A DNA stretch of 43,477 bases from Promethearchaeota archaeon Loki_b31 (lineage in GTDB: Archaea; Asgardarchaeota; Lokiarchaeia; Sigyniarchaeales; SOKP01): NCBI GenBank assembly GCA_005222975.1, contig NJBI01000029.1, forward strand, positions 1 to 43,477, given 5' to 3'. The position numbers and the translations under genes are program-made. Of the stretch, positions 7,438-31,770 are shown in pieces. Below the pieces are notes generated by a model. That model saw only the letters and a program-made list of their open reading frames with translations, did not search any database and was not told where the DNA came from. How positions within the stretch are numbered: the first letter of the stretch is position 1; each line of letters begins with the position of its first letter.

Positions 7438-7713
7438 ATCGAGATTATTGGATATTTGGGAGATTTATTGGCTCAAAAAATCAATATAAGTCCACCTGCT
7501 GCCCGTGGATTAATAAAGCTATCGATAAAGGACGAGTTAGGTCCTTTTAAACCATATAATCAAATTGATTTTGAAGATTTGAAAAAAACTTTTGAAAATT
7601 CTCTAAAAAGAAGATTAATAAAATTAGAAGTTCAAGAATGTGAATCTATTCTTGATTATATAATAGATGAACTAACTTTAAACCAGTCGTTAATAACAAT
7701 TGGAGGAGTATAA
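7438..7713 (+). CDS. Small helical hypothetical protein, apparently co-transcribed with the downstream 7TM protein
   Basis: ORF track start TTG 7456; frame is open upstream and ATC 7438 follows SD-like GAGTTGA, so start is uncertain. Ends 3 bp before the next ATG. Confidence 0.65.
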   Translation: MEIIGYLGDLLAQKINISPPAARGLIKLSIKDELGPFKPYNQIDFEDLKKTFENSLKRRLIKLEVQECESILDYIIDELTLNQSLITIGGV

Positions 7714-7716
7714 AGG

Positions 7717-8502
7717 ATGGCCCTTATTATTTTATTCTGGATTTTCGCTATATTGTTGATATTATTTATTGTTTCACTCTTAGTTGTAGGTATTTTTTTC
7801 TTAATTAAAGGTAATCAAAATAAAATGAAGAACCTTATAGTTATAGGAATAGGTTTTATTGCAATGGTTATCGGTTTTATTGGTAGCTTTGTCTTTAATT
7901 TGGGATTTGCTTTTCAAGAAGTTTTTGTTTTTATTGGATTCGTTTTATTAGTAGTTTTTACAAATATGACGTTTTACAAAGGTAGAAAGTCAAAAGCAAA
8001 AGTAGTATTAATTGTTACGGTAATTTTAGGAGCCATACAGCTTATACTTATGACACTCCACACTCAATTTTCAATTAATACCTATTATTTCAGAGTTACT
8101 TTAGATGTACCCTATACTTTTTTAGTCTTTAATTGGATGGCGTGGTCATCCTATTCCGCTTATCAAAAAATAAAGAATAAAAATATTCAACCATGGATAA
8201 AAGTTCGATACAAATTAGTTGCTTTCGTTTCATTTATTCTCAGCTTTAATAATATATCCGAGTATTTTCAGCCTGTAGGTACTACATGGGGCGATCCTGA
8301 TAATTTAATAAGCCTAGCTGTTTTTGGTACAACTGCTGTAATATCAGTAATTTTTGCAATTGGGTTTAGTTTGGCATGGATGATGCCAAATTGCCTTAAA
8401 AAGTTTTTTAATAGGAATTATCAACTTTTAGATGAAAAAGAGTATACTGAAGAAGAATTAATGAATTTAATTAGAGAACAATTAGCGAACAGGAATAATT
8501 AA
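7717..8502 (+). CDS. Seven-TM membrane protein without an output domain
   Basis: Seven hydrophobic segments by eye; AWMMP followed by an amphipathic segment and an acidic tail (YTEEELM). SD GGAGG. Confidence 0.75.
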   Translation: MALIILFWIFAILLILFIVSLLVVGIFFLIKGNQNKMKNLIVIGIGFIAMVIGFIGSFVFNLGFAFQEVFVFIGFVLLVVFTNMTFYKGRKSKAKVVLIVTVILGAIQLILMTLHTQFSINTYYFRVTLDVPYTFLVFNWMAWSSYSAYQKIKNKNIQPWIKVRYKLVAFVSFILSFNNISEYFQPVGTTWGDPDNLISLAVFGTTAVISVIFAIGFSLAWMMPNCLKKFFNRNYQLLDEKEYTEEELMNLIREQLANRNN

Positions 8503-8527
8503 TTCTCGTAATTTTTATTCTTACAGA

Positions 8528-9022
8528 TTAATCCTTAACAAAGTTTATCGCTATTTGAAGCAATTTATTATTTAAATAAATAAAACCATTAATTTCCTTG
8601 CTTCTAGAATCCATTATTATCCATATTAAGTGTTTGAACTTTTTTATACCACAGTTATGATAAGATTTCATACATTTTTTATCAAAGCCACTCGGATTTG
8701 CTCCAGCGGGGTGAGAATGAAAAATTGCTATTAATTGTAAATTGTTATTTTTTGAAATAGTAGTTGAAAGTTTTATCAACATGTCGTCGTTATCTAACAA
8801 GAATGCAACAGGACTTTTATTGCTAGAGTCAATACATTGAAAATCCTTACTATAATACTTATAATTAAAATCACCATTATTATTAATTTCTTGAATTTCA
8901 CCGAAAATTAAACCGCACGCTTCATTCGGGGTGGCCTTTTCAATACATTTTTCTAATTCGTTAATTAGGATTTTGTCAAAAAAAAAAATAATATCGTTTT
9001 CAAATCTCATTTTATACTTCAT
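8528..9022 (-). CDS. JAB/MPN+ (M67 family) metalloprotease
   Basis: PNEACGLIFG and FHSHPAGANPSGFD form a complete JAMM motif (E..HxH..S..D). Confidence 0.9.
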   Translation of the reverse strand: MKYKMRFENDIIFFFDKILINELEKCIEKATPNEACGLIFGEIQEINNNGDFNYKYYSKDFQCIDSSNKSPVAFLLDNDDMLIKLSTTISKNNNLQLIAIFHSHPAGANPSGFDKKCMKSYHNCGIKKFKHLIWIIMDSRSKEINGFIYLNNKLLQIAINFVKD

Positions 9023-9029
9023 ACTCGAA

Positions 9030-9707
9030 TTAAAATAACGTTAAAGCCGCGTTTAAAGCGGCTAACCGCGATATTTGGGGATTTTCACCCAAACCTATTA
9101 TTATCACATCGTCTTTCTCAAATAATACCTTAGCTTTTTCAATTTTAGATGTAAAATACTTCAGAGTTTTTTGATTGATTTTCTTTTGTTCTTCGATGCT
9201 ATTATTTACAAATTTAGAGGGAAAGATAATATCTTTTCCATTGTAGACAAGACAAGTAGCTCCAGAACCATTAACCTTTATTGCCGCGTCTCTTTGCTCG
9301 ATTCCGTTCTTAATCTTCTTAGTAGCGTTCTTAACTAAACAAAAGTAAGGATTAATATTTTCAGGTTCAATAATAATATCTTTTAAAAAAGTAAGGTCCG
9401 CTTTTTCTAATAAAGGAATTTTTTTTTTTACTTTAGCAAAAAATTTATGCCCTTTCTCAGTTAACACATGCCCTTTCCTTTCTCCTTCGTCTGGAACTAC
9501 AATAAACTCACTTACATCTTTTAGTTTTTTAACCAAAGATTTTGCTGTTCCAGATCCAATTTGCAATTCATCTTTAAGGCGATATCTTCCAATGCCTCCT
9601 GGATTTTCTCCAAATATAAATAAAGATAATATTATATGAACATAATCGAAAGTAGGTCTAATAGTTAGACTTTCAAATAGTGGCTTCAATTCACTTAATT
9701 CTTTCAT
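9030..9707 (-). CDS. DUF4443-like winged-helix protein
   Basis: IGRYRLKDELQIGSGTAKSLVKKL wHTH, GHVLTEKG, GIEQRDAAIKVNGSGAT. Confidence 0.8.
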   Translation of the reverse strand: MKELSELKPLFESLTIRPTFDYVHIILSLFIFGENPGGIGRYRLKDELQIGSGTAKSLVKKLKDVSEFIVVPDEGERKGHVLTEKGHKFFAKVKKKIPLLEKADLTFLKDIIIEPENINPYFCLVKNATKKIKNGIEQRDAAIKVNGSGATCLVYNGKDIIFPSKFVNNSIEEQKKINQKTLKYFTSKIEKAKVLFEKDDVIIIGLGENPQISRLAALNAALTLF

Positions 9708-9816
9708 GCTCTTGTAAAAAAAATATTACATCAAATAAAATTATAAGTTAAAATAGTATTATTTCCTTTATATAATCGATATTAATTACTTTATCGGGAA
9801 GTCGGCGAATTTTTTA

Positions 9817-10815
9817 ATGGCTAAAAAAAAAAGAGATCAAGATCAAGAAGATATGCACGAATTAATATTATTTAGAGAGCCGACTGCTCAGGAAATAAAA
9901 AAATTCGAATCTGTTTCTCTTGAATATATTGATCAAGAAGACAAAATTAATTTAGTATGCAAATCAGAACCTTTTGGAGGAAATTATCTTTACTCCTTGG
10001 TAATATCAAATATTAGCGTTGATCCGATTACAGAAATTAAGATTAGAGTGAGAATTCCAAGATTCTTAAAGCTTTGTAGAAGTACACCTCCAACTATAAC
10101 CATAGAAACAATTAATTTTGAAGAAGATGAAGAAGAAACACAAGTAAAAATAGAATTTGAAGTAATAAAAGGAAAGGCTCAAAAACAAATTAATTTATAT
10201 TTTTGCCCGTTATCCTTAGAAGAAAAGGGTGAGATTAGATCATCCGTTACATTCGTTAATAATGTTGATTTTGTTAGGGCAATTGAGACGGATGCTATTA
10301 CTATTCAATTCGATCCATTTAGCATTGAAAGAAAAATATTACCAAGCGCTGAAGTTAAAAAATTCCTACAGAAACCCGGGATAAAAAAAGCGATTAAAAG
10401 TATTGGGATTGGTATAGAAAAATTCTTCGACGAAAACTATTATTTCAACCAAATTAATAAAATCATCCAAGACCAAAATTTCCAATTAATTATTAAAGAT
10501 AAAGATAATAAAATTGCTTGGTTTTTCGGAACAGAATTAGTATCGGGAATCGATGTCTTGGTAATTGGACAAATTATCTCGGGTAAAATAGAATGGTTAG
10601 CAGCGTCGCAAAACCATCCTTTACTCATCTCCATCTTAACAAACTTTATAAACTCTTTTAAAGAAGAAATGATGATTTTAAACCAAATAAATTCTGAAGA
10701 TCAAATTTTTCACTTAGAATGTAAATATTGCGGCAATATCTTATCTAGCTTTCCTGGAAAAGGTAAATCTATCGAATGTAATAAATGCAACTACGAACAA
10801 GTTATTTGGAACTAG
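9817..10815 (+). CDS. Hypothetical protein: Ig-like beta-sandwich, alpha/beta platform-like domain and C-terminal zinc ribbon
   Basis: Alternating beta pattern (YSLVISNISVDPITEIKIRV); C-terminal CKYC..CNKC. Fold call is inference. Confidence 0.6.
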   Translation: MAKKKRDQDQEDMHELILFREPTAQEIKKFESVSLEYIDQEDKINLVCKSEPFGGNYLYSLVISNISVDPITEIKIRVRIPRFLKLCRSTPPTITIETINFEEDEEETQVKIEFEVIKGKAQKQINLYFCPLSLEEKGEIRSSVTFVNNVDFVRAIETDAITIQFDPFSIERKILPSAEVKKFLQKPGIKKAIKSIGIGIEKFFDENYYFNQINKIIQDQNFQLIIKDKDNKIAWFFGTELVSGIDVLVIGQIISGKIEWLAASQNHPLLISILTNFINSFKEEMMILNQINSEDQIFHLECKYCGNILSSFPGKGKSIECNKCNYEQVIWN

Positions 10816-11248
10816 AAAATTTAATTACTCCTTCGTAAATGTATTCTTTCGATGATGTGTTTTAAAAATAGATTAAATTTTTTTATGTTTCATTTGATAT
10901 TAAATTTCGCTTTTCAGCATTTCACAATTTGATTAAATTTTTATTTTCTTCTAAAATTATTACCAATTGTTTCAGTATGTCAGGTTTAGAGCCCTTTTTA
11001 TTCATTTTAGCATTAAATATTCACAGATTTGAAAAATCAGTGCAAGATATTTATATTGTACGAAATGATTCGATTAGTATGATTTGAATTTTGTCGTGAA
11101 ATTTTTTTCGTTTTTTTCCTTAGAAAATCAAGTATCAATCAAAATCTTTAAATATATAAAAGAACATTCTTTATTTGATTAAGTAAATTTAATCAAAAAA
11201 ATTAAATTTAAAAATATTAACTAAAATATATAAAGTGGAGGAATTATC

Positions 11249-11461
11249 ATGTCTGAATACATTAGTTGGAGTCCTATTAGGCGCCTTATGAAACATAACG
11301 GTGCTGTTATTGTCGCAAGAGACGCTGTAAACGAGCTAGTCGATTGGATGGGCGCATCAGCAGAAAAAATAACCAAAAGTGCGTTAACCTTAACGAAACA
11401 TTCAAAACGTAAGAAAATAACTCGGGACGATATCTTATTAGCTATTAAATACTTCAAATAA
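11249..11461 (+). CDS. Archaeal histone (HMf-like, tail-less)
   Basis: PIRRLMK, VARDA, KHSKRKKITRDDI histone-fold motifs; SD GGAGG at 11237-11241. Confidence 0.93.
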   Translation: MSEYISWSPIRRLMKHNGAVIVARDAVNELVDWMGASAEKITKSALTLTKHSKRKKITRDDILLAIKYFK

Positions 11462-11482
11462 ATAGCAAATATAGTTTAAAAC

Positions 11483-11512
11483 TTATTTCTTTTTTTTTTC
11501 TTTTTATTTTAT
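11483..11512 (+). terminator. Oligo-T terminator of the histone gene
   Basis: TTATTTCTTTTTTTTTTCTTTTTATTTT about 20 bp after the stop. Confidence 0.6.
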
Positions 11513-12099
11513 TTATTAAATTAATCAGGAAAATTTCTATTAACTTTTATTAGCAGATGTTTCAAATATTGTTTCATATAGAACCTTTCGCTGTTGCAAT
11601 AGTTTAACTTTTCGTTATTTGATAATTCTTTACATTTTTTCAAGAGAGTATGGATATCTTCAACTATAATAAAATACTCTTTTTTAGCAACATCACATTC
11701 TTGAATTATTAGATCATTAACTAAATTTGAGTTAAAATCGTTGTCTCCAACTTGAGTTTTTCTACTATTTATTGAAGGGCTATCTATGTTTGGTTTAACT
11801 GTTTCAATGAAATATACTACTTCTTTACTATTGCTGAAACCTTTTGAAATGAATACTCATCTCGGAGAATTTTCGATTTAATGAAAGAAATCACAAAACA
11901 ATATTTAAAAGAGAAGATAGTAGCAATTTATTGTTAAATAAGAAAATTAGTAAAAAAGTCTATTAATCTAAGCAATAATTATTGTTGATGTATTTTTCTA
12001 ATCCTTCGAGAATACTTCTAGTTCCCTTAGAATTATAATTTCAATTAAATGTATCTCTTTTAATTCCTTTTATTTCATAAATTTTATTAAATTATATTG

Positions 12100-12191
12100 T
12101 CTAGCTCCTTCTTGATCGAATAGTTTTGCGGTTGTTTCTCCGATGCTTGCCTCCGCTCCTGTAATTATGCTACTTTTCTTTCTAATTTCAT
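12100..12191 (-). pseudogene. 5' remnant of an SDR-family oxidoreductase
   Basis: ATG AAA TTA GAA AGA AAA GTA GCA TAA; a one-base shift continues IITGAEASIGETTAKLFDQEGAR, a decayed Rossmann TGxxxGIG motif. Homology ends after about 30 codons. Confidence 0.8.
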
Positions 12192-12217
12192 GATTGTTAA
12201 ATCCCATTTAATTTAAT

Positions 12218-13015
12218 TCATAATCCCAAAATTTTTCGAGCTTCGGATGGATCTGCTGTTTCACGCCCCATTTCTTTACTGATATTTACCATCCGAAGTA
12301 CAATCTCAGCATTATCTTTTGCTGGAACATTCTCCTTCAAGAAAGGATAGTCTTCCGTTCCTATACGCACATTCCCTCCATTAGCAATTGACATTACAGC
12401 AATTTTAGTCTGTTCTTCCCCCATAACACTAATCGTATGAAGGCAATTTTCGGGCATGTATTTTATTCTATGCAAATATTCATCCGCTGTTGGTGGTGAC
12501 CATGTGCCCCCAGGCCAGTTAAAAAACAAGGTTAAAACATGGGGCGCATTCAATAAACCTTTTTCAATTAAATAGTTAAGATTCCAATATGAACCTATAT
12601 GCCACACTTCCCATTCAGGTTTTATACTAAACTTTTCGCAAGTAATGCAGTACTGTTCTAATTCGTCAAGATCGTGGATTTGGTTTACTGTCATTTCAGT
12701 AAAATGCTCATCGTGATGATTCAATATCACAGAAAGCATGTCGGGTTTCGCATGAAAGTCTGGAGCTCTTTCTTCTATTGGGTAGCTGGACATACCTGCT
12801 TGGATTATAATATCGCATCTTTCTCTAATTCTTTTAACAGTTTCGATCTCTTCTCCTCTGGGCAGGTGAACGTGAGCGATTGCAGCTCCAGCTTCATAGC
12901 ATTTAACAACATCCTCTATCAAAGCATCTGTTGTTTCCGCCCAATTTTTTAAATCAGGATACATCCAAGAATTTGCAGTTGTGGCTGTAATAATCATCTT
13001 CTCATATTCTATCAT
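12218..13015 (-). CDS. Beta-keto acid cleavage enzyme (BKACE/DUF849, Kce-like)
   Basis: CYEAGAAIAHVH Zn motif, KPEWEVW, GGNVRIGTED, DNAEIV. Confidence 0.88.
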   Translation of the reverse strand: MIEYEKMIITATTANSWMYPDLKNWAETTDALIEDVVKCYEAGAAIAHVHLPRGEEIETVKRIRERCDIIIQAGMSSYPIEERAPDFHAKPDMLSVILNHHDEHFTEMTVNQIHDLDELEQYCITCEKFSIKPEWEVWHIGSYWNLNYLIEKGLLNAPHVLTLFFNWPGGTWSPPTADEYLHRIKYMPENCLHTISVMGEEQTKIAVMSIANGGNVRIGTEDYPFLKENVPAKDNAEIVLRMVNISKEMGRETADPSEARKILGL

Positions 13016-13119
13016 TACATTCTTACAATTTAGCTTATGATTATAACTTTATATTTATTATTTAAGTAGTAAAAATTTTAAAAATTTGATTTTTTCTTCA
13101 GGTTATTTTAAAAAAGTAT

Positions 13120-13226
13120 TGTAAAGTTTATTTAACATATTACAAATTAGGAGGATAAACTACTTTACTATCTATTCTTGATCAGAATAGAAATATTTAA
13201 ATATGTATGTAAATATTTATTACATA
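13120..13226. promoter_or_regulatory. Putative XRE operator palindromes in the divergent promoter region
   Basis: TATGTAA-ATATTTA-TTACATA (13206-13226, perfect arms) and TGTAAA-GTTTAT-TTAACA (13120-13137); also inverted repeat TCTATTCT-TGATC-AGAATAGA (13171-13191). Confidence 0.5.
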
Positions 13227-13336
13227 GCAAAGAAATATTTTAAGCTTTCTTTTTTAAAGGCTTAAAATGTTAGAAAATTGAAGATAATTATAATTTACAT
13301 ATAATAAAATTAATAAAAAAATGGAGGAATTATAAT

Positions 13337-14164
13337 ATGAGTAAAAATGATTTAGACTTTCAAGGTAAAATTTCTCGCGATTATGCTAAAAAACAGATTC
13401 TTAAAGGCTCTATCGGTTATTTTCTATTTTATGCATCGTGGATGTTTTTGACATCTGGGCTTATATACTTTTTTGAAGCTAGTATACAATTAGAATGGTT
13501 CTTATTGATGATATTCTATGTAGTACTTATTCCCTACGTGTTTTATTTGATTTTTACTATATGGTACGAATTTAAGTACGTCAAAATGTTTTCGTTTGAA
13601 GTGCAAGAAAATACCCTTGTTATTCGTCATGGTGTTTTCAATAGGGTTAAAGCTACGATTCCTTATAGTAGGATACAAAACATTAATATGACGAATGGAG
13701 TTTTCGATAGAATGTACAAGACTTTTACTGTTAAGGTTGAAACGGCTGGGTCTAGCGCAGTCACAGCTAGTAGTCAATCAGGTCATCTAAAACCGGAAGG
13801 ATATATTCCTGGATTGAAAGACCCTACTCTCATTGAGAATAAAATAAAAGAACGCTTAATGAGATATTCTGCGATACCAAGTGGTTTAGAAGACAAGATT
13901 TTTAAGCCGGAGGAATTGGCATTTGACAACTTTATCAGCTATATTCTTTCAAAAATGCGCGAAGGAGAAAAGCTAAGAACTTCAATCAAAGAAAGACGTG
14001 AAGGTGTTAAGTTGACAGTCGCTAACTTAGCTGAAAAAGTTGGTGTGCCTATTAATACAATCAAATATTTAGAAGAAGGAAAATACAATCCAAGTCTCGC
14101 CGTAGCTTACAAAATCGCTGAAGTGTTAAATTGTAAAATCGAAGAGCTTTTTAAATTAGCTTAA
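13337..14164 (+). CDS. Membrane protein with bacterial PH domain (bPH_2/YdbS-like) fused to a C-terminal XRE HTH
   Basis: Two TM helices; IRHGVFNRVKATIPYSRIQNI..VETAG; C-terminal LAEKVGVPINTIKYLEEGKYNPSLAVAYKIAEVL. SD GGAGG. Confidence 0.85.
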   Translation: MSKNDLDFQGKISRDYAKKQILKGSIGYFLFYASWMFLTSGLIYFFEASIQLEWFLLMIFYVVLIPYVFYLIFTIWYEFKYVKMFSFEVQENTLVIRHGVFNRVKATIPYSRIQNINMTNGVFDRMYKTFTVKVETAGSSAVTASSQSGHLKPEGYIPGLKDPTLIENKIKERLMRYSAIPSGLEDKIFKPEELAFDNFISYILSKMREGEKLRTSIKERREGVKLTVANLAEKVGVPINTIKYLEEGKYNPSLAVAYKIAEVLNCKIEELFKLA

Positions 14165-14223
14165 TTTTTTTTTTTTCACATTTATTCTAAAATATATTTT
14201 AAAATTATATAGGTGAGAAGCAT

Positions 14224-14631
14224 CTGAAATTTAAGAAAAAAATAAAATCTAAAGTTAAAGATTTTAGAGAAAAGCTAGGTTTAACTCAACAGCAGTTAGC
14301 CGAAAAAATAGGTGTTTCTCGCCAGACAATCTATTATCTTGAGAAAGGAGATTACAATCCTTCTCTAACAATTTCATTTAAACTTTCAGAGATTTTTAAT
14401 AAACAGTTAGATATGATTTTTTATCAAGAACCTATCATGAAAGATTTGCTAGGTAATAAAACTCTGGACGAATTAGAAAGCATTTCTGAAACTATAGGTA
14501 TGAAAAAAATTAAGTTGATCGAGCTAAAAAACCTTAATGAGTCTCAATTGGCTTTAAATTATAAGAAAAATGAGATTGAGAAATTGTCTCATGCATTAGG
14601 TTATAAATTTGAAGATTTATTTGAAGAATAA
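14224..14631 (+). CDS. XRE-family HTH transcriptional regulator (probable CTG start)
   Basis: Frame is open from 14203 and encodes REKLGLTQQQLAEKIGVSRQTIYYLEKGDYNPSL upstream of the first ATG (14413); SD AGGTGA 7 nt before CTG 14224. C-terminal half looks like a degenerate second HTH. Confidence 0.85.
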   Translation: MKFKKKIKSKVKDFREKLGLTQQQLAEKIGVSRQTIYYLEKGDYNPSLTISFKLSEIFNKQLDMIFYQEPIMKDLLGNKTLDELESISETIGMKKIKLIELKNLNESQLALNYKKNEIEKLSHALGYKFEDLFEE

Positions 14632-14645
14632 CAATTCTTTTCAGA

Positions 14646-16268: not shown

Positions 16269-16346
16269 TTAAACCACATTTTTTAAAAGAGTAATAAAAA
16301 ATATCTCATTTGTTTTGCTATGTATTTATTTTCACTTTTCTACTAT

Positions 16347-17090: not shown

Positions 17091-18190
17091 TACATCTCAA
17101 CTCCTTTACTAGTTTCTATAATAAAAGCTTCCCCGCCAGCATCTTCTATAACATTCTTAAGAAGATGTACATTATTTGGCATTAAAGCAAACATCGTCCC
17201 ACCGAACCCAGAACCATTAATTTTTCCACCTAAAGCCCCAGAGCTTAAACTATTAGAGATAATTTTATTAATTTTATTAGTTGAAATCTGTATATTGTCT
17301 CTTAATTGTTCTTGATGCAAATTTAATAGAGATCCTAGTCTTCGATAAAATTTAACCATATTATTCGAGCTCTCTCCTTGTTTTAATAAAGAAAGTTGTT
17401 TATCGATTAATTCCTTTGCTTTATAAGTAATGTCTCTATTAATAATATTTCCTACAATCTTTTCCTGATGCTCTTTTTTTAAACTAGGTAAATACGGCTG
17501 TATATCTTCTAATTTTGTATAAAATTGATTGAATCCGGGCATTATATTGGAAATTTTCTCAAAAGCATCTAATGTTAGATTTTTTGTTCTAACCAAGTCA
17601 TCTACCGTCTCTTTTTTTTCCATTGAATTTCCTAAAACAAACCCTTTTAGCTTGAGGTCATAAACAATTAAATTAGGTTTTGGGAGTACAGGTTTTAAAA
17701 AGATTAAGTTTCCAAAAACCGAGCTAAAGTGATCCATCATACCCCCTCCTTCTTTAAACTCCTTTACTTCCGTATTATACCCCTCTACTGCTAACTGAAA
17801 GAGATCTAATTTTGTATCACTTATTATGTTTAAAAAATATAACCAAGCAATCACTAAAGCTGAAGAACTGGCAACACCTGCGTTAATTGGGATATCCCCG
17901 GTAATTTTAATCCTATATCCTTTTTCAAACCTGCTTCTTTTCCTGAGAAATTGATTGTAACCACTAATTAGATAATCTCGATTTGATTCGTAATCGAGCT
18001 CTTTATTATTTAGCGATATCTCTACGAATGAATTTAAATTAGGCATATTTATTAAAAATTTTGGCTCAGAAATTCTTTCTGCTTCTAAATAAATATACTT
18101 TGATATCGCCATACAGATTATAGGATAATCCAAATAATCTTGATGCTCGCCAAAGAGACATATTCTTCCGGGAGATTTAATTCGAATCAT
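17087..18190 (-). CDS. GHMP kinase, galactokinase-like
   Basis: PGRICLFGEHQDY, IPINAGVASSSA, GGMMD, GGKINGSGFGG. Confidence 0.9.
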   Translation of the reverse strand: MIRIKSPGRICLFGEHQDYLDYPIICMAISKYIYLEAERISEPKFLINMPNLNSFVEISLNNKELDYESNRDYLISGYNQFLRKRSRFEKGYRIKITGDIPINAGVASSSALVIAWLYFLNIISDTKLDLFQLAVEGYNTEVKEFKEGGGMMDHFSSVFGNLIFLKPVLPKPNLIVYDLKLKGFVLGNSMEKKETVDDLVRTKNLTLDAFEKISNIMPGFNQFYTKLEDIQPYLPSLKKEHQEKIVGNIINRDITYKAKELIDKQLSLLKQGESSNNMVKFYRRLGSLLNLHQEQLRDNIQISTNKINKIISNSLSSGALGGKINGSGFGGTMFALMPNNVHLLKNVIEDAGGEAFIIETSKGVEMY

Positions 18191-21416: not shown

Positions 21417-21434
21417 AATTAGCGAAAAAATAAA

Positions 21435-22073: not shown

Positions 22074-22116
22074 AATTTAACCTTATTTTACAATTTAAAT
22101 AGATTCTATCGTATTT

Positions 22117-22821: not shown

Positions 22822-22837
22822 TAGTCCACCAATAAGT

Positions 22838-23275: not shown

Positions 23276-23319
23276 TTTTTTTCATCTCGTTTTAATGTAT
23301 TCAATTAAATTTTTAAAAA

Positions 23320-23940
23320 TTATTGAGATTTAAGACTTTTTTCCATACATCTTTTTAAATCATTCATTTGAAGGGAGATTGAAACGTCTCCTCTAGTTTT
23401 CTCTATTATACTTCTCGCTACATCTGTTTTGTGCCTTAAATCTTGAGTTAATCCAGAGGGGTAGTCAATCGAAAACAATTGCGTGTAGATATCATCCATA
23501 CTTTCTAAGATATAGTTTAGATCGTCTATAATAGAATTTCTAATATTATCTAACGCGTATCTTCGCAATTCTCCGATTACATCAGCAAGCCCTAAAGCAT
23601 AATTTAAAGGCGTTATGTTTAATTCACTAGGCAATGGAAGAGCCTCTTTTGAAATAATCGAATAAAACGCGACAGCTTCTGCGTATTCTTGTTCTGCAGT
23701 TTTTAAATACTTGGATAAAACGCCTGGATTATCTTTTACCAATAATAATAATTCTTTATGGTTTTGTTTTATAATTGAAACTTTTTCGCGATATTGATTA
23801 AATTCTTTTCGATGTATGTTCTTAATTGCAATACTACATTCCCGAATTATCCTTCTGGACATTTTGAGTATTTCTTCTCTATCTTGATCTAATTTATCCA
23901 GAACTTTTGTTAATTCAGAGAAAATATTTTTAAGCCTCAT
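23320..23940 (-). CDS. Translin/TRAX (C3PO)-family protein
   Basis: REEILKMSRRI, QEYAEA, YALGLADVIGELRR and LRHKTD motifs; acidic catalytic positions appear intact. Confidence 0.92.
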   Translation of the reverse strand: MRLKNIFSELTKVLDKLDQDREEILKMSRRIIRECSIAIKNIHRKEFNQYREKVSIIKQNHKELLLLVKDNPGVLSKYLKTAEQEYAEAVAFYSIISKEALPLPSELNITPLNYALGLADVIGELRRYALDNIRNSIIDDLNYILESMDDIYTQLFSIDYPSGLTQDLRHKTDVARSIIEKTRGDVSISLQMNDLKRCMEKSLKSQ

Positions 23941-24033
23941 TCTTATAAATAAATATTTTAGTAATAATTAATTTCAATTTTAAATTGTTAATTATCAAAA
24001 GGAAGAAAAATATTTAGGATTTTTGATATAATC

Positions 24034-26094
24034 ATGAAAATTTTATTAATTCACTCCGATGGGGTAGAAGTTATAAAAAATAAAGTAGCCACAAGCAATC
24101 CACAAGATTTTCCCGAAGATGTAATTAAAATGGAGGGCTTAATTTTAGTGGCTTATGTATCTGTAGAAGATCAAGATACATACGATACAGATTTGATTTC
24201 CAAACAAGGTGCTCAAGTGATAGAAGACGCAATAATTCAAATAACGAATTTTCCCGAAAAAATTAGACGTAAAAACGAAGAGATAAGAGAATATAATAAA
24301 AAGATTGAAAGTGGCCAAACTAAAGGGAAACCAAGAAAAATTCTTGAGTTAATAAAGGAAAGGGGTACTTATAGGGTTGATCAAGTATTAGTTTACCCTT
24401 GGGCGCATTTAAGCAAATTTCTTAGTAATGAATCAAACGCTATGGATGTTTGTCCCAAAATAGCAGAATTCTTAAAAGAAAAAGGTATAAAAGCGAAATT
24501 TTCTCCATTTGGTTGGTACAAATCTTTTAAAATAAACTGTATTGGTCACGAAGTAGCTGAGATGTACCGAGATGTAAAGTTATTTATTCAACCCGGAGAA
24601 CACATAGAAAACGCTGTGTTTAAAGTAATTACTCCCCAAGGAACTGAATTAGATTTAGAATTTGACGAAGACAAAAATGTCTTGCCCTTAAAAGAGGTTA
24701 AAGACGAAGATTTCCAGCTTTTCTTAGAATCTGAATTAGGAACGAAAAGAATAGACGAAGGAATCGAACCAGCTCATATCAAAGTAATGAAAGAATTTGA
24801 GCTTGTAGATTTCGATCCAAATACAGATGCGGGGAACCTCCGTTGGTACAGTAAAGGAATGATCATGAAAAACTTGATCAAAAGTTTTGTGGAAGATAGG
24901 ATAATTGATTATGGCGCTATTCTTATTGACACTCCTCTTATGTATACGACTAAAAACAAAAAGTTAACCGCCCAAACTGCACGTTTTCCAGCGAGGAGTT
25001 ATTGGGTTGAATCGGGAAATGATAGGTATATATTAAGATATGCTTCTGATTTCTTACTTTTTGATTTATTAAGCTCTATGAATTTAAAACCTCATTATTT
25101 TCCATTAAGAATATATGAATGGGAACAATATTCCTTTAGACGGGAAATGAAAGGAGAACTTACAGGTTTGAGAAGGTTAAGAAGTTTTGTAATGCCTGAT
25201 ATGCACACATTATGCAAAGATGTAAAGTCCTCCGTAGAAGAATTTAAAAGTCAATACTTCTTAATAAAAAATCTTTTAGAAGACCTGGGAATAAAATCTT
25301 ATATAATTTTCAGAGCAACTCAAGATTTTTATAGAGAAAACAAGAAATGGATTAAAGAATTGATAAAGAAAGAAGGACAACCAGCTTTATTAGAATTATG
25401 GGAAGAACGGTACTTTTACTTTGTTTTAAAATTCGAAAGACCAGTCCTCTCAGCTCAAAATAGAAGCGCTACACTCTCAACTAACCAAATTGACCTAGAA
25501 AGCTCGCTTGAATATATGTTCGATAACAAAGGAATAAAGAGACTAAAATATGACATTCATTTTACAGATATTGATGGTATAAAGAAGTATCCTGTAATTC
25601 TTCACAATTCTCCAACGGGGGGGCTAGAAAGAATTTTATGGGGGTTGATTGAAACAGCTGTTAGGGATAAGGACAAAATTATTCCCGGATTTAAGACGTG
25701 GATATCCCCTATACAAGTAAGAATTATCACAGTTAGTGAAGATCAGAAAGAATACGCTGAAAAAGTTTTGGAGATTCTCAGCAGAGAATTTTACAGAGTA
25801 GATTTTGATGATAGAGATGAGAAATTAGGAAAAAAAATTCGACAATCCGAAATAGAATGGATACCATATACAATAATATTAGGTAAAAAAGAGCAAGAAG
25901 CTCAAACCATTTCGGTACGAAAAAGATTAATCGGTCAACCTATTGGCCCAAAAAAAGGCACTTCAAAAAATATAAACGATATAAAATTAAGCGAACTACT
26001 GGAAATGCTCGACGACGACACGAAAGGGTTCCCTAAACACAAATTACCAAAACCTTTTAGACGATTTTCAACCAAAGTGTATTTTAGAAAGTAA
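24034..26094 (+). CDS. thrS: Threonyl-tRNA synthetase, archaeal type with N-terminal editing domain
   Basis: MKILLIHSD, YPWAHLS, PFGWYK editing domain; FRREMKGELTGLRRLRSFVMPDMH motif 2; ILHNSPTGGLER motif 3; anticodon-binding domain. Confidence 0.96.
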   Translation: MKILLIHSDGVEVIKNKVATSNPQDFPEDVIKMEGLILVAYVSVEDQDTYDTDLISKQGAQVIEDAIIQITNFPEKIRRKNEEIREYNKKIESGQTKGKPRKILELIKERGTYRVDQVLVYPWAHLSKFLSNESNAMDVCPKIAEFLKEKGIKAKFSPFGWYKSFKINCIGHEVAEMYRDVKLFIQPGEHIENAVFKVITPQGTELDLEFDEDKNVLPLKEVKDEDFQLFLESELGTKRIDEGIEPAHIKVMKEFELVDFDPNTDAGNLRWYSKGMIMKNLIKSFVEDRIIDYGAILIDTPLMYTTKNKKLTAQTARFPARSYWVESGNDRYILRYASDFLLFDLLSSMNLKPHYFPLRIYEWEQYSFRREMKGELTGLRRLRSFVMPDMHTLCKDVKSSVEEFKSQYFLIKNLLEDLGIKSYIIFRATQDFYRENKKWIKELIKKEGQPALLELWEERYFYFVLKFERPVLSAQNRSATLSTNQIDLESSLEYMFDNKGIKRLKYDIHFTDIDGIKKYPVILHNSPTGGLERILWGLIETAVRDKDKIIPGFKTWISPIQVRIITVSEDQKEYAEKVLEILSREFYRVDFDDRDEKLGKKIRQSEIEWIPYTIILGKKEQEAQTISVRKRLIGQPIGPKKGTSKNINDIKLSELLEMLDDDTKGFPKHKLPKPFRRFSTKVYFRK

Positions 26095-26122
26095 CGCGCG
26101 AATTGCGTATATATGGTGATGT

Positions 26123-26752
26123 ATGATTACAAAAATAAAGTGTGTTATTATCGATTTAGGAGATGTAATTATTGATTTAGATTTTAGTAGGTTCTTTAAT
26201 GAGGTAATAACTCCATCTCCTTTGAATAAACCTAAAACTCCAATAATGTTAGAATTTTTTCGTCAATCAGATACTTATCACCAAGGTAGAATAACAGATA
26301 AAGAGTTCTACCAACAAGCTTGCGAATTGCTTGAAGTATGTGCTCTTAATCAAACTGAGTTTTATAACGCGTTTAATAGTATTATTGCAGACCTCAATCT
26401 AGATATGGTTGATTTAATTAGAAATATTAAGACTTTAAATAATTTAAAGATAATATGCATGTCAAATATTAATTCTAGTCATTGGACTTATTTGAAAAAA
26501 CAAAAATGGAATATTTGGGAGCTTTTTGACGAATTTATTCTCTCGCATGAAATACACATGACAAAACCGGACCCGAAAGTTTTCGAGTATGCTTTAAAAA
26601 TAGCAGGGTGTAAACCAGAAGAAATTATATTTATTGACGATGGTTTTAATAACGTTCGATCAGCTCGGGTATTAGGAATAAATTCAATAAGATTTATCGG
26701 ATTGGATAATTTGGTTGAAGAGATCCAAAAGTTCGACATAAAGGTAGGCTAG
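26123..26752 (+). CDS. HAD-family phosphatase (YihX-like)
   Basis: IIDLGDVI, MSN, KPDP, FIDD motifs I-IV. Confidence 0.9.
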   Translation: MITKIKCVIIDLGDVIIDLDFSRFFNEVITPSPLNKPKTPIMLEFFRQSDTYHQGRITDKEFYQQACELLEVCALNQTEFYNAFNSIIADLNLDMVDLIRNIKTLNNLKIICMSNINSSHWTYLKKQKWNIWELFDEFILSHEIHMTKPDPKVFEYALKIAGCKPEEIIFIDDGFNNVRSARVLGINSIRFIGLDNLVEEIQKFDIKVG

Positions 26753-26797
26753 AAGGGTTGAATGATTAAATAGGGTATTGAATTTTATCTTACGCTG

Positions 26798-27322
26798 TTA
26801 TTTCCCAATATTAATGTTATCTAAACATGCTCGAGCTAATTTCTCAAAAGCTAGTTCAACATTATCTCCCGTTTTAGCAGAAGTTTCTAAATACTCGCAA
26901 TTTAATCGTTTTGCCAAGTCTTCTGCCTCACTCCTCTCAATTTGGCGTTCTAAATCGTTCTTATTTCCGACTATAAGTATAGGTATTGACTTTTTAACTG
27001 TTTTCTTTATACTGCTAATCCATCCAGGGAGTTTTAAAAGAGATTGAGGCGAAGTTAAATCGAATACTCCAAATGCCGCATTACTCCCCTTAAAATAGAT
27101 CGTACGTAGTTTTGCAAACTGATCTTGTCCGCCTATGTCCCAGAGTAGTAGCCTAATGTTCTGTTCGTTAATCAGAACATCCTTTATCAAGAAATTCGAA
27201 CCAATGGTTTGTTTTAAATCGGAACTAAAATAATCTTTTATATATCTGACGAGTAGGGATGTTTTACCTACACTCCCAGGTCCAAACAAACAAACTTTAA
27301 ATTTTAACGACGATTCTCCCAA
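26798..27322 (-). CDS. Rab-like small GTPase
   Basis: G1 GPGSVGKTS, G2 TIG, G3 WDIGGQ, G4 NKND, G5 ETSAK; no C-terminal prenylation motif. TTG 27322 follows SD GGTGA (track start 27334). Confidence 0.93.
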   Translation of the reverse strand: MGESSLKFKVCLFGPGSVGKTSLLVRYIKDYFSSDLKQTIGSNFLIKDVLINEQNIRLLLWDIGGQDQFAKLRTIYFKGSNAAFGVFDLTSPQSLLKLPGWISSIKKTVKKSIPILIVGNKNDLERQIERSEAEDLAKRLNCEYLETSAKTGDNVELAFEKLARACLDNINIGK

Positions 27323-27546
27323 TGATTTCACCAACGGGTTGCGATTATTTCTCTTAGGTTGAGGATGTTCAAAAATTCATCCTTACTAAGGAGAACATTT
27401 ACTATTTTTATTTTATTACTTTTACTATATTCAATATTATCTTAAAGATATTTATATGTTTAGGATTGTAAATTAATACTGGCTGGTACTTCAAAAGAAA
27501 AAAGTAGTAAGGAAAAAATATTTTTGAGTTTGTGTAAATTTTTAAT

Positions 27547-28818
27547 CTATTTTTTTCGTTTCTTCTTCCCAATTCCCCCCATAGCAGCCATTAGCCATTC
27601 GGGACTACCGACTCCATTTGCATATTCCATCCAAATATACATTAAGAAGCCCATAAAACCGACATAAGTTATGTTTATAATGAGGAAAAGTATAACATCG
27701 AATTGTCCAATAAATAAACCAAGAAATAGCTGGTGCACAAAAAATAGACTTAACGAGACTTTACCGTAATATACTAGCATTTTAACGAAAATACCATATT
27801 TCTTCTTGATATCAATAAAATAAAAGCAGATGGCTATTATTAAAAGCGCAGCACCTAAATTATAAAACATGTTTGGGCCTCTACCTCTGATTAAAAACTC
27901 AGGCATTCCGGGAATTACAAAATATTTTTGGTCATTTGCTACACTTAATAAGATCATGTGAGGATATTCTCGGAGTCCACCTGGTATTGAAGATTCAGTG
28001 TACAATTGAGAACCTAAACCAATACCTACCGCTACCAAGATAATACCCCAGACCATAAAAATTCGAAATAAACCAACATACGCATCGTCAGTCCCCTTAT
28101 TCATTGCTTCGTAGAGATATTCTCCAAATATAGTAGAAATAAAACAGATAGCAAGACCTGGAAGGAGGGGTACCATGGGGTTTGGTCCGATTACTATAAA
28201 ATGAATTACGATTACGATTAAATTATCCGCTTCCAATCCTGGAACAAAAATTAGGTCTCTAATCACATTTGAAAATACTACGATTAAAATAGCAATAATG
28301 CCACGATAAAACTTAGTTAATTTTAAAGCGTAAAATGAAAAGATCTGTGAAGCGCCTATAAACATTAGGATGTTCCAACCCCAAAGGCTTAAAGGGAATG
28401 GTACGCCAAATCCATCCAAAGTTAGGGATACAACATTATAAATCATCGCTATTAGGATAATCATCGCGCCTCTCGAGAAAATTCGCATGCGAATTACTTT
28501 AGGAGGGAGTATGTTTTGCTTATTTTTTATGCTGAAAATTACGCTTAGAGACGAAAGAAAAACAAATAGCGATGGGCCAAGGAAATCCATTAATAAAAAT
28601 AATATTCCGTAAACATATTGGTTTTCACTGTTTAACCAAGCGCTACCCGAATGCGCTAATATAATAAAAACAATTGCGAAACCTTTTACAAAATCAATGC
28701 TTCCAATTCGTTTTGGCGAAGCAAAATCCCTGATATCTTCTAATGGGATTAATTCTTGCAAATAATTGAACAGTGGAGGAGATTCAGTTGCCCTTCCTAA
28801 TTCATTTTCAATCGATAT
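27547..28818 (-). CDS. Multi-pass membrane acyltransferase (HGSNAT/DUF1624-like), paralog 1 (probable ATA start)
   Basis: RIGSIDFVKGFAIVFIILAH, WNILMFIG, YYGKVSLSLF, SPEW; similarity to the paralog extends upstream of TTG 28761. Confidence 0.82.
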   Translation of the reverse strand: MSIENELGRATESPPLFNYLQELIPLEDIRDFASPKRIGSIDFVKGFAIVFIILAHSGSAWLNSENQYVYGILFLLMDFLGPSLFVFLSSLSVIFSIKNKQNILPPKVIRMRIFSRGAMIILIAMIYNVVSLTLDGFGVPFPLSLWGWNILMFIGASQIFSFYALKLTKFYRGIIAILIVVFSNVIRDLIFVPGLEADNLIVIVIHFIVIGPNPMVPLLPGLAICFISTIFGEYLYEAMNKGTDDAYVGLFRIFMVWGIILVAVGIGLGSQLYTESSIPGGLREYPHMILLSVANDQKYFVIPGMPEFLIRGRGPNMFYNLGAALLIIAICFYFIDIKKKYGIFVKMLVYYGKVSLSLFFVHQLFLGLFIGQFDVILFLIINITYVGFMGFLMYIWMEYANGVGSPEWLMAAMGGIGKKKRKK

Positions 28819-28956
28819 TTTTCACCAATTAAAATTATTACTTGAAAATTATAGAATATTCTTGTCTTATGAAAATTTAAACTTTATCATAAAAGAAAAA
28901 TTGAGATAAGAAATTAAAAATTGTTGAAAATTTTATTAGAAATTATTTGTATCGAC

Positions 28957-30330
28957 TTATTCTTCTGAACCTTTATCGCGTTCGTGTTTTATTTTATGAA
29001 CTGTTTCCTTTATTTCTTCTTCTATTATGCGTATTTCCTTCTTAAAAGTATCCCCTGTCTTCTGTCCAATTCTCCCAATTTGGACCATAATCCATTCTGG
29101 AGAACCCGCGCCGCCATAAAACTCGTTCCATACATACATTAAAAAACCCCAAAATCCCAAATAACCAAAAACAACGAATACTAAAGCAACCAAATTGAGA
29201 GAACTTAAAAAGAGTGTAATAAATATAAAATGTAGCAAAAACAAACTCAACGACACTTTTCCATAGTAATTCACCATGGATATAAAAACATTCATTTTCC
29301 TTTTTATGTCGATAAAATAAAAACTAATGGCAATGAGTAAAAGCGCAGCTCCTAAATTATATATCATGTTAGGCGCTCGTCCTCGAATTAAGAACTCCCA
29401 CATCCCAGGATATGTAATCTCGGGGAAGATACTTTGTGTTTGCATTATATTTAAGAGATCTATATGAGGATACTCATTTAAAGGAAGTTCACTGGTTGTA
29501 AAACCTCCGGGAACATATGCATTGCTACCTAAAAAAATGCCAGTAAGAACAAGGAAAATCCCCCAATATAAAAAGGTTCGAAATAACTTTTTATAATCTT
29601 TTTTCGTTCCTCCAACCATGGCTTCATACAAATATTCTCCAAAAATCGAAGAAAGAAAACATATCGAAAGCCAGGGTAATAATGGGGTCATAGGCGAAGG
29701 TGAAACTATTATATAGTGAAAAATAGAGATTATTACATCTCCTGCTTCTTTTCCTTGAAAAAGCCAAAATCGAATATTATCAGAAGTAAAAATAATAAAT
29801 AGACCTATTACTGCTCGAGCGATTTTACTAAGTTTTAAAGCGTAATAAGAAAATATCTGTGAAGCGCCTATAAACATTAGGATGTTCCAACCCCAAAGTG
29901 TGGCGGGAAAGGAATACCCTTCAATTGTGAACTCAATAGAAATTAAATTGAATATAACTGCTATTACAATAATCATTATTCCTCGAGAAAAAATTCTATT
30001 TCTTATGACCTTTTCTGGTAAAGTTCCCTTTTTTCGCCGAATACTAAAAACCACACTTAAAGCGGATAAAAAAACAAATAAAGATGGACCGAGAATGTCA
30101 AGAAAAGAAAGCGCTATCCCATAGAGAAATATCCAAGTAGAATCAAGCCACGCACCTGCTGTATGAGCTATTATTATAAAGACGATCGCGAATCCTTTGA
30201 CGAAATCTATGCTCCCAATACGCCTTACAGACGAGAAATCCCTCAGTTCCTCGACCGGGATCGCTTGCTTTAAATAATCTAAAAGGTGTATCGAGTCCAG
30301 ATCAATTTCTTTTTCTTTTTCCGATGACAT
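28957..30330 (-). CDS. Multi-pass membrane acyltransferase (HGSNAT/DUF1624-like), paralog 2
   Basis: Same motifs as paralog 1, plus a charged C-terminal extension. Confidence 0.82.
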   Translation of the reverse strand: MSSEKEKEIDLDSIHLLDYLKQAIPVEELRDFSSVRRIGSIDFVKGFAIVFIIIAHTAGAWLDSTWIFLYGIALSFLDILGPSLFVFLSALSVVFSIRRKKGTLPEKVIRNRIFSRGIMIIVIAVIFNLISIEFTIEGYSFPATLWGWNILMFIGASQIFSYYALKLSKIARAVIGLFIIFTSDNIRFWLFQGKEAGDVIISIFHYIIVSPSPMTPLLPWLSICFLSSIFGEYLYEAMVGGTKKDYKKLFRTFLYWGIFLVLTGIFLGSNAYVPGGFTTSELPLNEYPHIDLLNIMQTQSIFPEITYPGMWEFLIRGRAPNMIYNLGAALLLIAISFYFIDIKRKMNVFISMVNYYGKVSLSLFLLHFIFITLFLSSLNLVALVFVVFGYLGFWGFLMYVWNEFYGGAGSPEWIMVQIGRIGQKTGDTFKKEIRIIEEEIKETVHKIKHERDKGSEE

Positions 30331-30446
30331 TTCAGTTCAATATTTTTTTTGTAGTTCTATTTTAAGACTTAAATTAATATTACTATTTTAGTTTATACTA
30401 TTTGAATGTTTTTTTAAATATAAAAACCGTATAAACATAAAAAATT

Positions 30447-30854
30447 ATGAATATCAAAAAATATTTAGATTTTCGTTTGTTAGGATTAACTGGCTCGATA
30501 TTATTGATAATATCACAATTTTTATCTTGGTTCTCTAACCAATCTTTATTATGCATATATATTATTACAACGAGTGTAGCAATTGAAGATTCTTTTTTAT
30601 ATCTATTTCCTTTAATTAGCGGAATAATCTGTTTAGTTGGAACGGGTTTAATCGTTTATAAAATAGATTATAGAATTAATTCTGTAATAATTAATTTCGT
30701 TGGGTTGGGTTTTTTTTTGATATTTATTTTTGAAATCGTCACAAAAGAATTCATTTATCTTCCTACCGCCCAAATAGGTTTTTACTTTTCAATTATAGGC
30801 TCGATATTAATATTCTTCGATATTTTAAACGTCCTTATAATAAAGGAAAGCTAA
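30447..30854 (+). CDS. Four-TM hypothetical membrane protein
   Basis: FLSWF motif after TM1, four hydrophobic segments, IGFY motif. Confidence 0.75.
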   Translation: MNIKKYLDFRLLGLTGSILLIISQFLSWFSNQSLLCIYIITTSVAIEDSFLYLFPLISGIICLVGTGLIVYKIDYRINSVIINFVGLGFFLIFIFEIVTKEFIYLPTAQIGFYFSIIGSILIFFDILNVLIIKES

Positions 30855-30873
30855 GTGAGAAGGGGATCAAGCA

Positions 30874-31770
30874 ATTAGTGAAAAAGAAGAAACACATACG
30901 GAAAACGCTAAAAATTACGATGCTGAGGCTAATTTTTACTATGCCTTGGGCCATGGACTTAGGAGAAAGATTATAAACATTATTGGAGAGAATAAATTTA
31001 CTTCGTTCACATATCTTAAAAAAGAATTAAAGGTAAGTACAGGTACGATTTACCACCATTTAGATACTCTGTCTCATTTAATTGAACAACGTGATGATAA
31101 GAAATATTACTTAACTGAATTGGGACTCCATGCTTACAATTCGTTAAAGGATAACATAAATACAATCATTACTCCTGATTTTAGCAAAAAAGAATTTAGT
31201 TCGCCAATTTTGAAAGGATTAATGCGCTTGACTCCAAAAAAATATATTAATTACGAAAGCAACCAAATGATTTATACGATAATAATCTCAATTACGACTG
31301 CTTTAATAGGGGCAATATTTTGCGGTCTGAACGGTTTATTTCCTTTATTTCTCTTTTTTGGGCAATCTATAATAGAATTCGAATTTATTGAACCAATTCT
31401 TCAAATAATATTTGCAATTATATTTATAGGCAATATTGTTTTCTTTTTTCTAATTAACGAAGGCATAAGTCGCATAATTTATAAAAAAAAAGAAAATACC
31501 TTGAAATTTTTAATTTCTTTTCCCATTATTTTTTTTCCTTTAGATATTTACTTAGTATTGCATTTTATCTTATTCTCTACAGGTTCTTTAAATTTACCAG
31601 CAGTTAGAATATTAGATAATGTGCTCGTAATTTTATTCCAAGTATTGTCTTTATGGTTGTTAACATATAATTTAAGTGTGAATAAAAAGTTAAAAATTGA
31701 AAAATCGTTAATTATTTCGCTGTTGATCCACTACGGAGGTTTTTCTATTATCCTTCTACTTTCTATTTAA
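30874..31770 (+). CDS. ArsR-like wHTH fused to a multi-pass membrane domain (probable ATT start)
   Basis: FYYALGHGLRRKII..SFTYLKKEL..STGTIYHHLDTL..YYLTELG; first helix lies upstream of TTG 30946; about 5 TM helices follow. Confidence 0.82.
   Translation: MSEKEETHTENAKNYDAEANFYYALGHGLRRKIINIIGENKFTSFTYLKKELKVSTGTIYHHLDTLSHLIEQRDDKKYYLTELGLHAYNSLKDNINTIITPDFSKKEFSSPILKGLMRLTPKKYINYESNQMIYTIIISITTALIGAIFCGLNGLFPLFLFFGQSIIEFEFIEPILQIIFAIIFIGNIVFFFLINEGISRIIYKKKENTLKFLISFPIIFFPLDIYLVLHFILFSTGSLNLPAVRILDNVLVILFQVLSLWLLTYNLSVNKKLKIEKSLIISLLIHYGGFSIILLLSI

Follow-up and report, generated by a model that had tools for sequence, protein, structure and literature searches.

The window analysed here, a stretch of 43,477 nucleotides (nt; contig NJBI01000029.1) from the genome assembly of Promethearchaeota archaeon Loki_b31 (GCA_005222975.1), carries six genes in which the conserved N-terminus is preceded by no ATG, GTG or TTG after the bounding in-frame stop codon. 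Five of them encode an XRE-family helix-turn-helix (HTH) regulator, a sugar-phosphate nucleotidyltransferase, a RibL-type FAD synthetase, an ArsR-like winged-helix protein with a membrane domain (ArsR-TM) and a small conserved protein of 91 amino acids (aa). On the comparative evidence these five genes are intact, and initiation at near-cognate codons (CTG, ATC, ATT), led by the position of the Shine-Dalgarno (SD) motif, is the explanation that best fits them. The sixth gene, for an HGSNAT-like membrane acyltransferase with ATA at the start position, is considered separately below. All six positions and their motifs had been listed in the original prediction, and every one of them was recovered as given when the raw sequence was read from stop to stop.

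Candidate start sites in the window

The contig (43.5 kb, approx. 30% G+C; C74 in our numbering) belongs to a metagenome-assembled genome (MAG; here G000) of 3.5 Mb in 99 contigs, which is 92% complete. It was compared with 24 genomes of the same genus and 16 genomes from other families of the order; the frames were examined from stop to stop, Pfam profiles were run on them and the start codons of orthologues were tabulated. Handles beginning with L denote individual loci. At the six sites the bounding in-frame stop lies 1–16 codons before the proposed start with no ATG, GTG or TTG in between (0/6), and in the relatives, too, no canonical in-frame codon follows the upstream stop before the conserved N-terminus is reached. 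All six codons are one base away from AUG and align to a canonical start in orthologues. The claim that intact genes carry CTG, ATC, ATT or ATA at the homologous start position was thus borne out by the alignments.

Five sites, all except that of the acyltransferase, combine an SD spacer of 6–7 nt with an SD score of 6.5 or more, a value reached by merely 11–14% of the confident ATG starts in this genome. As five of the six window sites score this high, the near-cognate starts accompany unusually strong SD motifs. In the 982 confident ATG starts the signal is GGTGA at a spacer of 6 nt, and the sites in the window stand behind an SD at 6–7 nt just as ATG starts do, or at an NTGA overlap with the preceding gene, as had been proposed. 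In the motifs at 7424–7430, 17097–17104 and 23282–23288, GAG-N-TGA (N = A, T or C, never G) replaces GAGGTGA; the mismatch eliminates the GTG that is contained in a perfect SD.

The five conserved frames are free of internal stops in up to approximately 25 species, and their HTH, HxGH and KAxxLCAG segments are conserved. The region is present on contigs of at least eight metagenome studies, and genomes of different species, assembled independently of each other, share the same start regions; sequencing and assembly errors are thereby excluded for the five sites. Coordinates of all features are collected in Table 1.

Table 1. Genes with proposed near-cognate starts and their SD motifs. Locations without a contig prefix refer to the window; the others give genome, contig and positions.
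Feature	Location	Strand	Start or position of motif
SD-like GAGTTGA	7424..7430	+	7 nt before ATC 7438; score 7.5
Small conserved open reading frame, 91 aa, no Pfam family	7438..7713	+	ATC 7438
SD AGGTGA	14211..14216	+	7 nt before CTG 14224; score 9.0
XRE-family HTH regulator, 135 aa	14224..14631	+	CTG 14224
SD-like GGAGTTGA	17097..17104	-	6 nt before CTG 17090, in the terminal part of the upstream GHMP-kinase-like gene; score 7.5
Sugar-phosphate nucleotidyltransferase, 247 aa	16347..17090	-	CTG 17090
SD-like GAGATGA	23282..23288	-	6 nt before ATC 23275; includes the bounding in-frame stop (TGA); score 7.5
RibL-type FAD synthetase (cytidylyltransferase-like), 145 aa	22838..23275	-	ATC 23275
SD GGTGA	28822..28826	-	3 nt before ATA 28818
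HGSNAT-like membrane acyltransferase 1	27547..28818	-	ATA at 28818; possible starts ATA 28818 or TTG 28761
SD-like AAGGGGATC	30860..30868	+	5–7 nt before ATT 30874, varying with the chosen motif end; score 6.5
ArsR-like winged-helix protein with membrane domain, 298 aa	30874..31770	+	ATT 30874
aIF1 (SUI1)	G000:C88:29424-29774	-	near-cognate ATT; compared loci L272-L301
Ribosomal protein uS4 (L323)	G000:C17:20004-20504	-	ATC behind AAGGTGA-N6
IF-2B family protein (L312)	G000:C44:1516-2457	-	ATA; Pfam domain begins at or near the predicted start
Gtr1/RagA-like GTPase (L327)	G000:C58:3795-4745	+	ATA; Pfam domain from residue 2
Aldehyde:ferredoxin oxidoreductase (L325)	G000:C17:78502-79851	-	ACG; Pfam domain begins at or near the predicted start
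Aconitase X (L326)	G000:C18:50576-51769	+	ATT; Pfam domain from residue 1

Evidence from the individual genes

In the XRE regulator the HTH_3 domain, identified with Pfam, occupies residues 18–70 of the stop-to-stop frame and lies wholly upstream of the first ATG (14413). The homologous start codon is CTG in six species, TTG in two, GTG in two and ATG in four; 13 of the 14 orthologues retain the SD (as GGTGAG, GGTGGG or GGTGAA), the other one (L031) having AGTGAA, and after it come 6–7 nt and then NTG. Public calls of the Prodigal type are mostly 72 aa long, and the NCBI record for the same contig gives a protein of 129 aa from the rare start ATA 14242. The codon at this position encodes an internal Ile or Val in the orthologues, six codons after their ATG, TTG or GTG start, and the alignment does not favour ATA 14242 as the start. 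A gene for a membrane protein (13337-14164, + strand), whose C-terminus bears a paralogous XRE-type HTH, directly precedes the XRE gene; the pair is syntenic in most congeners, and a T13 run (14165-14177) lies between both genes.

The RibL frame matches the CTP_transf_like profile (PF01467) over residues 9–139 when read from stop to stop, and its first ATG (23194) corresponds to residue 30. That ATG is downstream of the HPGH (HxGH) motif, which is part of the product only when translation is read from ATC 23275, with a predicted N-terminus of M-VKKVLIAGTFDLLHPGH. The start is ATC or ATA in 11 species (75–100% aa identity), all of them with GAG-N-TGA (N = A, C or T) and a 6-nt spacer, and in the remaining congeners this codon aligns to ATG (eight species) or TTG (one). 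Among 12 out-of-genus RibL sequences, ten carry ATG at the homologous N-terminus or slightly ahead of it, and in two the first ATG stands directly before IAGTFD. The public calls of this gene, 118 aa long and missing the HxGH motif, form a cluster of 51 members labelled ‘FAD synthetase’.

CTG 17090 of the nucleotidyltransferase gene overlaps the stop codon of the upstream GHMP-kinase-like gene as CTGA, and position 1 of the NTP_transferase profile in Pfam is the K directly after this CTG. At the homologous start, nine species have CTG, 12 TTG and four ATG. The motif GGAGTTGA is conserved in the 13 closest orthologues, and most close relatives likewise have an NTGA overlap between this start and the stop codon of the GHMP-kinase-like gene. 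The downstream GTG 17078 is not conserved and is replaced by GTA, ATA or ATT in orthologues. A 247-aa form from CTG 17090 has already been called from this contig in NCBI nr. The expectation that standard gene callers would truncate such genes consequently holds for Prodigal-type annotation, as seen in the 118-aa RibL and 72-aa XRE calls, and not for all standard pipelines, because the NCBI record uses rare starts for two of the six genes (CTG 17090 and ATA 14242).

The small open reading frame (ORF) at 7438, which the original prediction had ranked as the weakest of the six cases, is in fact well supported; the weakest is ATA 28818. ATC is found in five orthologues (93% identity), in which (G)GAGTTGA is also kept, and it aligns to the ATG of approximately 15 paralogues and orthologues (MEIIKYLG...). 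The homologous codon is ATA in L101 and TTG or GTG in L106, L118 and L119; one orthologue, L100, has an in-frame TGA upstream.

The start of ArsR-TM is ATT at the same place in approximately 22 congeners (ATC in L093), with a stop codon 2–6 codons upstream in each, and GAAGGGGAT or GAAGGGAGT precedes it throughout the genus. Read from ATT 30874, the protein is predicted to begin with M-SEKEETHTENAK. An ATG is present only in the divergent congener L091 and in all eight out-of-genus orthologues. TTG 30946 of this genome corresponds to TTA in most congeners. For ArsR-TM and the acyltransferase the argument rests on the alignments of orthologues, since beginning at the first TTG would cost these proteins little or none of a Pfam domain.

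These data bear on the view that translation begins at the first downstream canonical codon, or that the genes are decaying pseudogenes, so that the upstream sequence merely looks conserved and is untranslated. Most public gene callers choose the downstream starts, the acyltransferase would keep its whole Pfam domain from TTG 28761, and one relative's copy of the acyltransferase (L132) is broken. Downstream initiation would nevertheless deprive the XRE regulator of its entire HTH and RibL of its HxGH motif; the upstream segments are conserved at the protein level, with synonymous changes, in species down to approximately 50% identity, and the alternative canonical codons GTG 17078 and TTG 30946 are not conserved. 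None of the five frames contains an internal stop in up to approximately 25 species, and neither frameshifts nor a loss of N-terminal constraint were found at the conserved sites. We therefore regard this view as very improbable.

A frameshift close to the start was considered as well. Translation would then begin in the +1 frame, at a canonical codon overlapping the bounding stop, and the reading frame would be restored by a homopolymer sequencing error, by transcriptional slippage on the A-run or by ribosomal frameshifting. Suitable codons do occur: in RibL, ATG 23285 (as ATGA) is followed by an A8 run, which with one A fewer would give MKKIVKKVLIAGTFD; in the acyltransferase gene GTG 28825 (GTGA) is followed by A5, and in ArsR-TM GTG 30855 (GTGA) by AGAAGGGG. 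In the relatives, however, they are not maintained. RibL orthologues have CTG or TTG in place of the out-of-frame ATG and a broken A-run (TTGACGAAAAATA, CTGACAAAAAATA) yet retain ATC or ATA in frame; ahead of ArsR-TM, relatives have GTA in place of the GTG, and relatives of the acyltransferase carry an in-frame ATG at that very codon. An NTGA is inherent in any SD of the form GAG-N-TGA or GGTGA, and the identical sequence in at least four independently assembled species excludes a random indel error. A conserved out-of-frame start together with a slippery run, as expected for programmed frameshifting or slippage, was not found at these sites, and the frameshift is the least probable of the explanations considered here. 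Recoding of stop codons (selenocysteine or pyrrolysine) that would extend the frames upstream was set aside, as the ATG, TTG or GTG starts of the orthologues fall at exactly these codons.

Near-cognate, SD-led initiation is thus the reading we retain for the five genes. In the mechanism that we propose, strong pairing between SD and anti-SD would set the 30S subunit on CUG, AUC, AUU or AUA, the GGTGA-type motif ending 6–7 nt upstream; in the nucleotidyltransferase gene the NTGA overlap of stop and start with the upstream gene may add to initiation. The initiator Met-tRNA would pair with one mismatch, so that the proteins would still begin with Met, and the strong SD would offset the weak codon. 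Such weak starts may hold expression low or make it sensitive to initiation factors.

Frequency of near-cognate starts across the genome

The near-cognate habit, which the original prediction had read from the window, recurs across the genome and the genus in the census, homology and Pfam data. A GGTGA census was made on ORFs of at least 150 codons, taking in-frame codons at least three codons before the first ATG, GTG or TTG and requiring exact GGTGA; ATA, ATT, ATC, ACG and CTG were counted as near-cognate. Near-cognate codons stood 6–7 nt after 26 of the 39 orphan GGTGA motifs (67%), compared with 30/244 at other spacers (Fisher p = 3e-12), and the out-of-frame and interior controls remained at background level; from the 26/39 against 30/244 we conclude that the pattern goes beyond chance. 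The ratio of near-cognate to first canonical codons after GGTGA at a spacer of 6–7 nt was nearly even (26:32). A second census, based on the SD score of 3430 coding-like ORFs, gave approximately 45–55 sites above background. A third census, independent of the SD, aligned the ORFs with 2 Mb from a complete other-family genome. Of 408 pairs, 23 (5.6%) had 10 or more aligned residues ahead of the first canonical codon of the genome studied here, and 11 (2.7%) had them ahead of that of the other-family genome.

Of 20 genes predicted elsewhere in the genome from their SD, 11 have a Pfam domain or clear homology that starts before the first canonical codon, and none contradicts the prediction. Examples are listed at the foot of Table 1. 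ATC of the uS4 gene aligns to Met1 of S4P in solved archaeal ribosomes (IGDPRR versus MGDPKR), the first canonical start being 22 codons further downstream. Taken together, near-cognate starts are probably used by 2–6% of the genes, which we give as a working estimate; relative to it, the share in the window (6 of approximately 47 genes) is at the high end.

Two other ways of counting were rejected. Among ORFs with at least 60 codons before the first canonical start (100/3430) many short ones resemble shadow ORFs, and 16/141 adjoin an upstream coding ORF and could be frameshifts. A figure of 110–550 genes, obtained by dividing the SD-score excess by SD sensitivity, was dropped because near-cognate sites carry stronger-than-average SD motifs.

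In a control genome from another family of the order (31% G+C), near-cognate codons followed 7 of 19 orphan GGTGA motifs at a spacer of 6–7 nt versus 8% elsewhere, and the ratio of near-cognate to canonical codons behind GGTGA was 7:30, compared with 26:32 here (p = 0.014). As a weaker signal exists in another family of the order, the trait is quantitative and not unique: the proposal of a lineage trait stands in so far as the signal is stronger here, and fails in so far as the weaker but real signal elsewhere makes it non-exclusive.

Several points weigh against the reading given above. The estimates for the whole genome are rough: the SD-score count is a minimum, and the homology count includes some extensions due to chance and perhaps also shadow ORFs. 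In comparison with the control genome the difference is marginal (p = 0.01–0.05). The exact start is a prediction and is not unique in every gene, NCBI taking ATA 14242 for the XRE regulator. ARAGORN detected 12–14 tRNA genes in the MAG and no tRNA-Met among them. Finally, position 28818 of the acyltransferase gene is ATG in 10 of 10 orthologues, one of them 96% identical, and in 8 of 8 metagenome contigs with matching flanks. The 3' end of the 16S rRNA was likewise not found in the MAG. RNA genes are sparse in this MAG; the tRNA set given by ARAGORN includes calls of tRNA-SeC(TCA) and of a tRNA-Ile(AAT) with an intron.

The acyltransferase gene

ATA 28818 is a private G-to-A difference confined to this assembly, and the identical GGTGA-AAA, with its 3-nt spacer, precedes ATG in the closest relatives. 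The Pfam domain begins downstream of both ATA 28818 and TTG 28761. The codon given in the original prediction does hold the position of the relatives' start, which is ATG, and its ATA is peculiar to this assembly. We tentatively interpret it from these comparisons as a separate and recent single-base event (ATG to ATA).

The same uniformity of ATG among orthologues and metagenome contigs, with GGTGA-AAA-ATG as the usual start of the family, would also be expected if the true codon were an ordinary ATG and ATA had come from an error of assembly or consensus calling, or from a minority variant. Another private substitution 25 nt away (AGG versus ACG) suggests genuine divergence of the strain, and ATA starts are tolerated elsewhere in this genome; an error or minority variant is nonetheless quite conceivable for this one gene, if somewhat the less favoured option.

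Two tandem acyltransferase paralogues are present in the window (27547-28818 and 28957-30330). In a close relative the orthologue of acyltransferase 1 (L132; G017:C49:145411-146421) is frameshifted and contains two TGA and two TAG stops, and since it is interrupted there, this paralogue may be dispensable.

Initiation fidelity and the aIF1 gene

For RibL and ArsR-TM the near-cognate state appears to be derived within the genus, as by parsimony the ATG of the out-of-genus orthologues would be the older state. Such a change could reflect a lineage-specific loss of fidelity, with aIF1, aIF1A, aIF2 or the initiator tRNA altered and near-cognate starts accumulating by drift; the part on divergent aIF1, aIF1A or aIF2 had been supposed in the original prediction. 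The larger number of near-cognate sites here than in the control comparison (26:32 versus 7:30, p = 0.014; 5.6% versus 2.7%) and the apparent change from ATG to ATH within the genus are in line with this, as is the start of aIF1 itself from ATT in 18 of the 18 congeners examined. On the other hand, the SD motifs at the sites are stronger than average, the ATT of ArsR-TM and of aIF1 is kept genus-wide, and the signal is found outside the genus as well. Strong SD motifs together with the long retention of the same codon make selection rather than drift look likely. Loss of fidelity is thus a doubtful explanation, and SD compensation under ordinary fidelity is at least as likely as relaxed fidelity.

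The aIF1 gene has its first canonical codon, GTG, at codon 44, downstream of the zinc knuckle and the SUI1 domain. The arrangement of AAAGGTTGTGA, 9 nt and ATT AAA GA. is shared by all 18 congeners in which the gene was found, the three triplets in front of ATT being freely variable. When translation is read from ATT, the alignment with M. jannaschii aIF1 (4mo0) begins at residue 5 of the protein and residue 3 of the reference. Other genera of the order have ATA (three genomes), TTG (five), GTG (one) or ATG (three), and the three ATA starts lie behind GGTGA-N5, GAGTTGA-N6 or GAGATGA-N6; in total, aIF1 starts with ATG in 3 of 30 genomes of the order. The gene therefore carries a start of the type that the factor itself disfavours.

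By analogy with infC and eIF1, we tentatively suggest that the near-cognate or weak start of aIF1 in Lokiarchaeales might form a negative feedback that would set the amount of aIF1 so that a dedicated group of SD-led genes with AUH or CUG starts stays translatable. As part of this speculative scheme, the gene set dependent on aIF1 might comprise regulators, cofactor enzymes, uS4 and the IF-2B-family protein.

Comparison with known systems

Near-cognate starts are a known kind of feature, but their frequency here, and where they occur, are out of the ordinary. In Escherichia coli, infC and pcnB have AUU starts behind an SD, infC autoregulating through its own AUU start in bacteria, and the alternative initiators of NCBI table 11 include CTG, ATT, ATC and ATA. 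The sites in the window resemble the bacterial ones in being one base off AUG, with an SD at canonical spacing, a conserved orthologous start and a codon that is typically weak. They differ in belonging to an archaeon with eukaryote-type aIF1, aIF1A and aIF2 and no IF3, and in their apparent frequency at the percent level, including a ribosomal protein gene, where bacteria have a handful of genes.

For eIF1, autoregulation through an AUG in poor context is described (Ivanov et al. 2010, as cited in PMC6237735), and aIF1 of S. solfataricus is reported to discriminate against non-canonical starts (PMC6237735). The aIF1 genes of this order, with ATT, ATA, TTG or GTG starts and ATG in only 3/30, share with infC and eIF1 a start of low strength; unlike in those systems, feedback on archaeal aIF1 is proposed here from gene structure alone. 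Eukaryotic non-AUG initiation, in which CUG is the strongest near-cognate codon (PMC4705826), is similar in that a near-cognate codon would pair with Met-tRNAi and be policed by a factor of the eIF1/aIF1 type. It depends on scanning and Kozak context, whereas the codon here would be picked by the position of the SD, with AUH more frequent than CUG.

In a MAG of the Kariarchaeaceae, a ‘rare ATT start codon’ has been suggested for atubA, a tubulin gene (PMC13394414). In that case, too, an ATT before the called start restores an N-terminal element, a beta strand, and lies at a plausible distance from the ribosome-binding site. The proposal concerns a single gene and stands in a methods section, in contrast to the comparative, spacer-resolved and genome-wide data given here. 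Apart from this one-gene remark, a systematic report on near-cognate starts in Asgard archaea was not found in the literature.

Implications

The eukaryote-like proteins of Asgard archaea have been mined almost wholly from gene calls on MAGs. If a few percent of the genes start with ATT, ATC, ATA, CTG or ACG, Prodigal-type annotation would systematically clip N-terminal motifs, as it does here with the HxGH of RibL, the whole HTH of the XRE regulator, the start of the RagA-like GTPase domain and the zinc knuckle of aIF1, and such clipping would distort domain inventories, structure predictions and expression constructs. The organism pairs eukaryote-type initiation factors with bacterial-style placement by the SD, and its conserved near-cognate starts, including that of aIF1 itself, make the control of start-codon stringency by aIF1 directly testable. 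The near-cognate start of aIF1 hints at an autoregulation of the fidelity factor that may be convergent or ancestral across the three domains.

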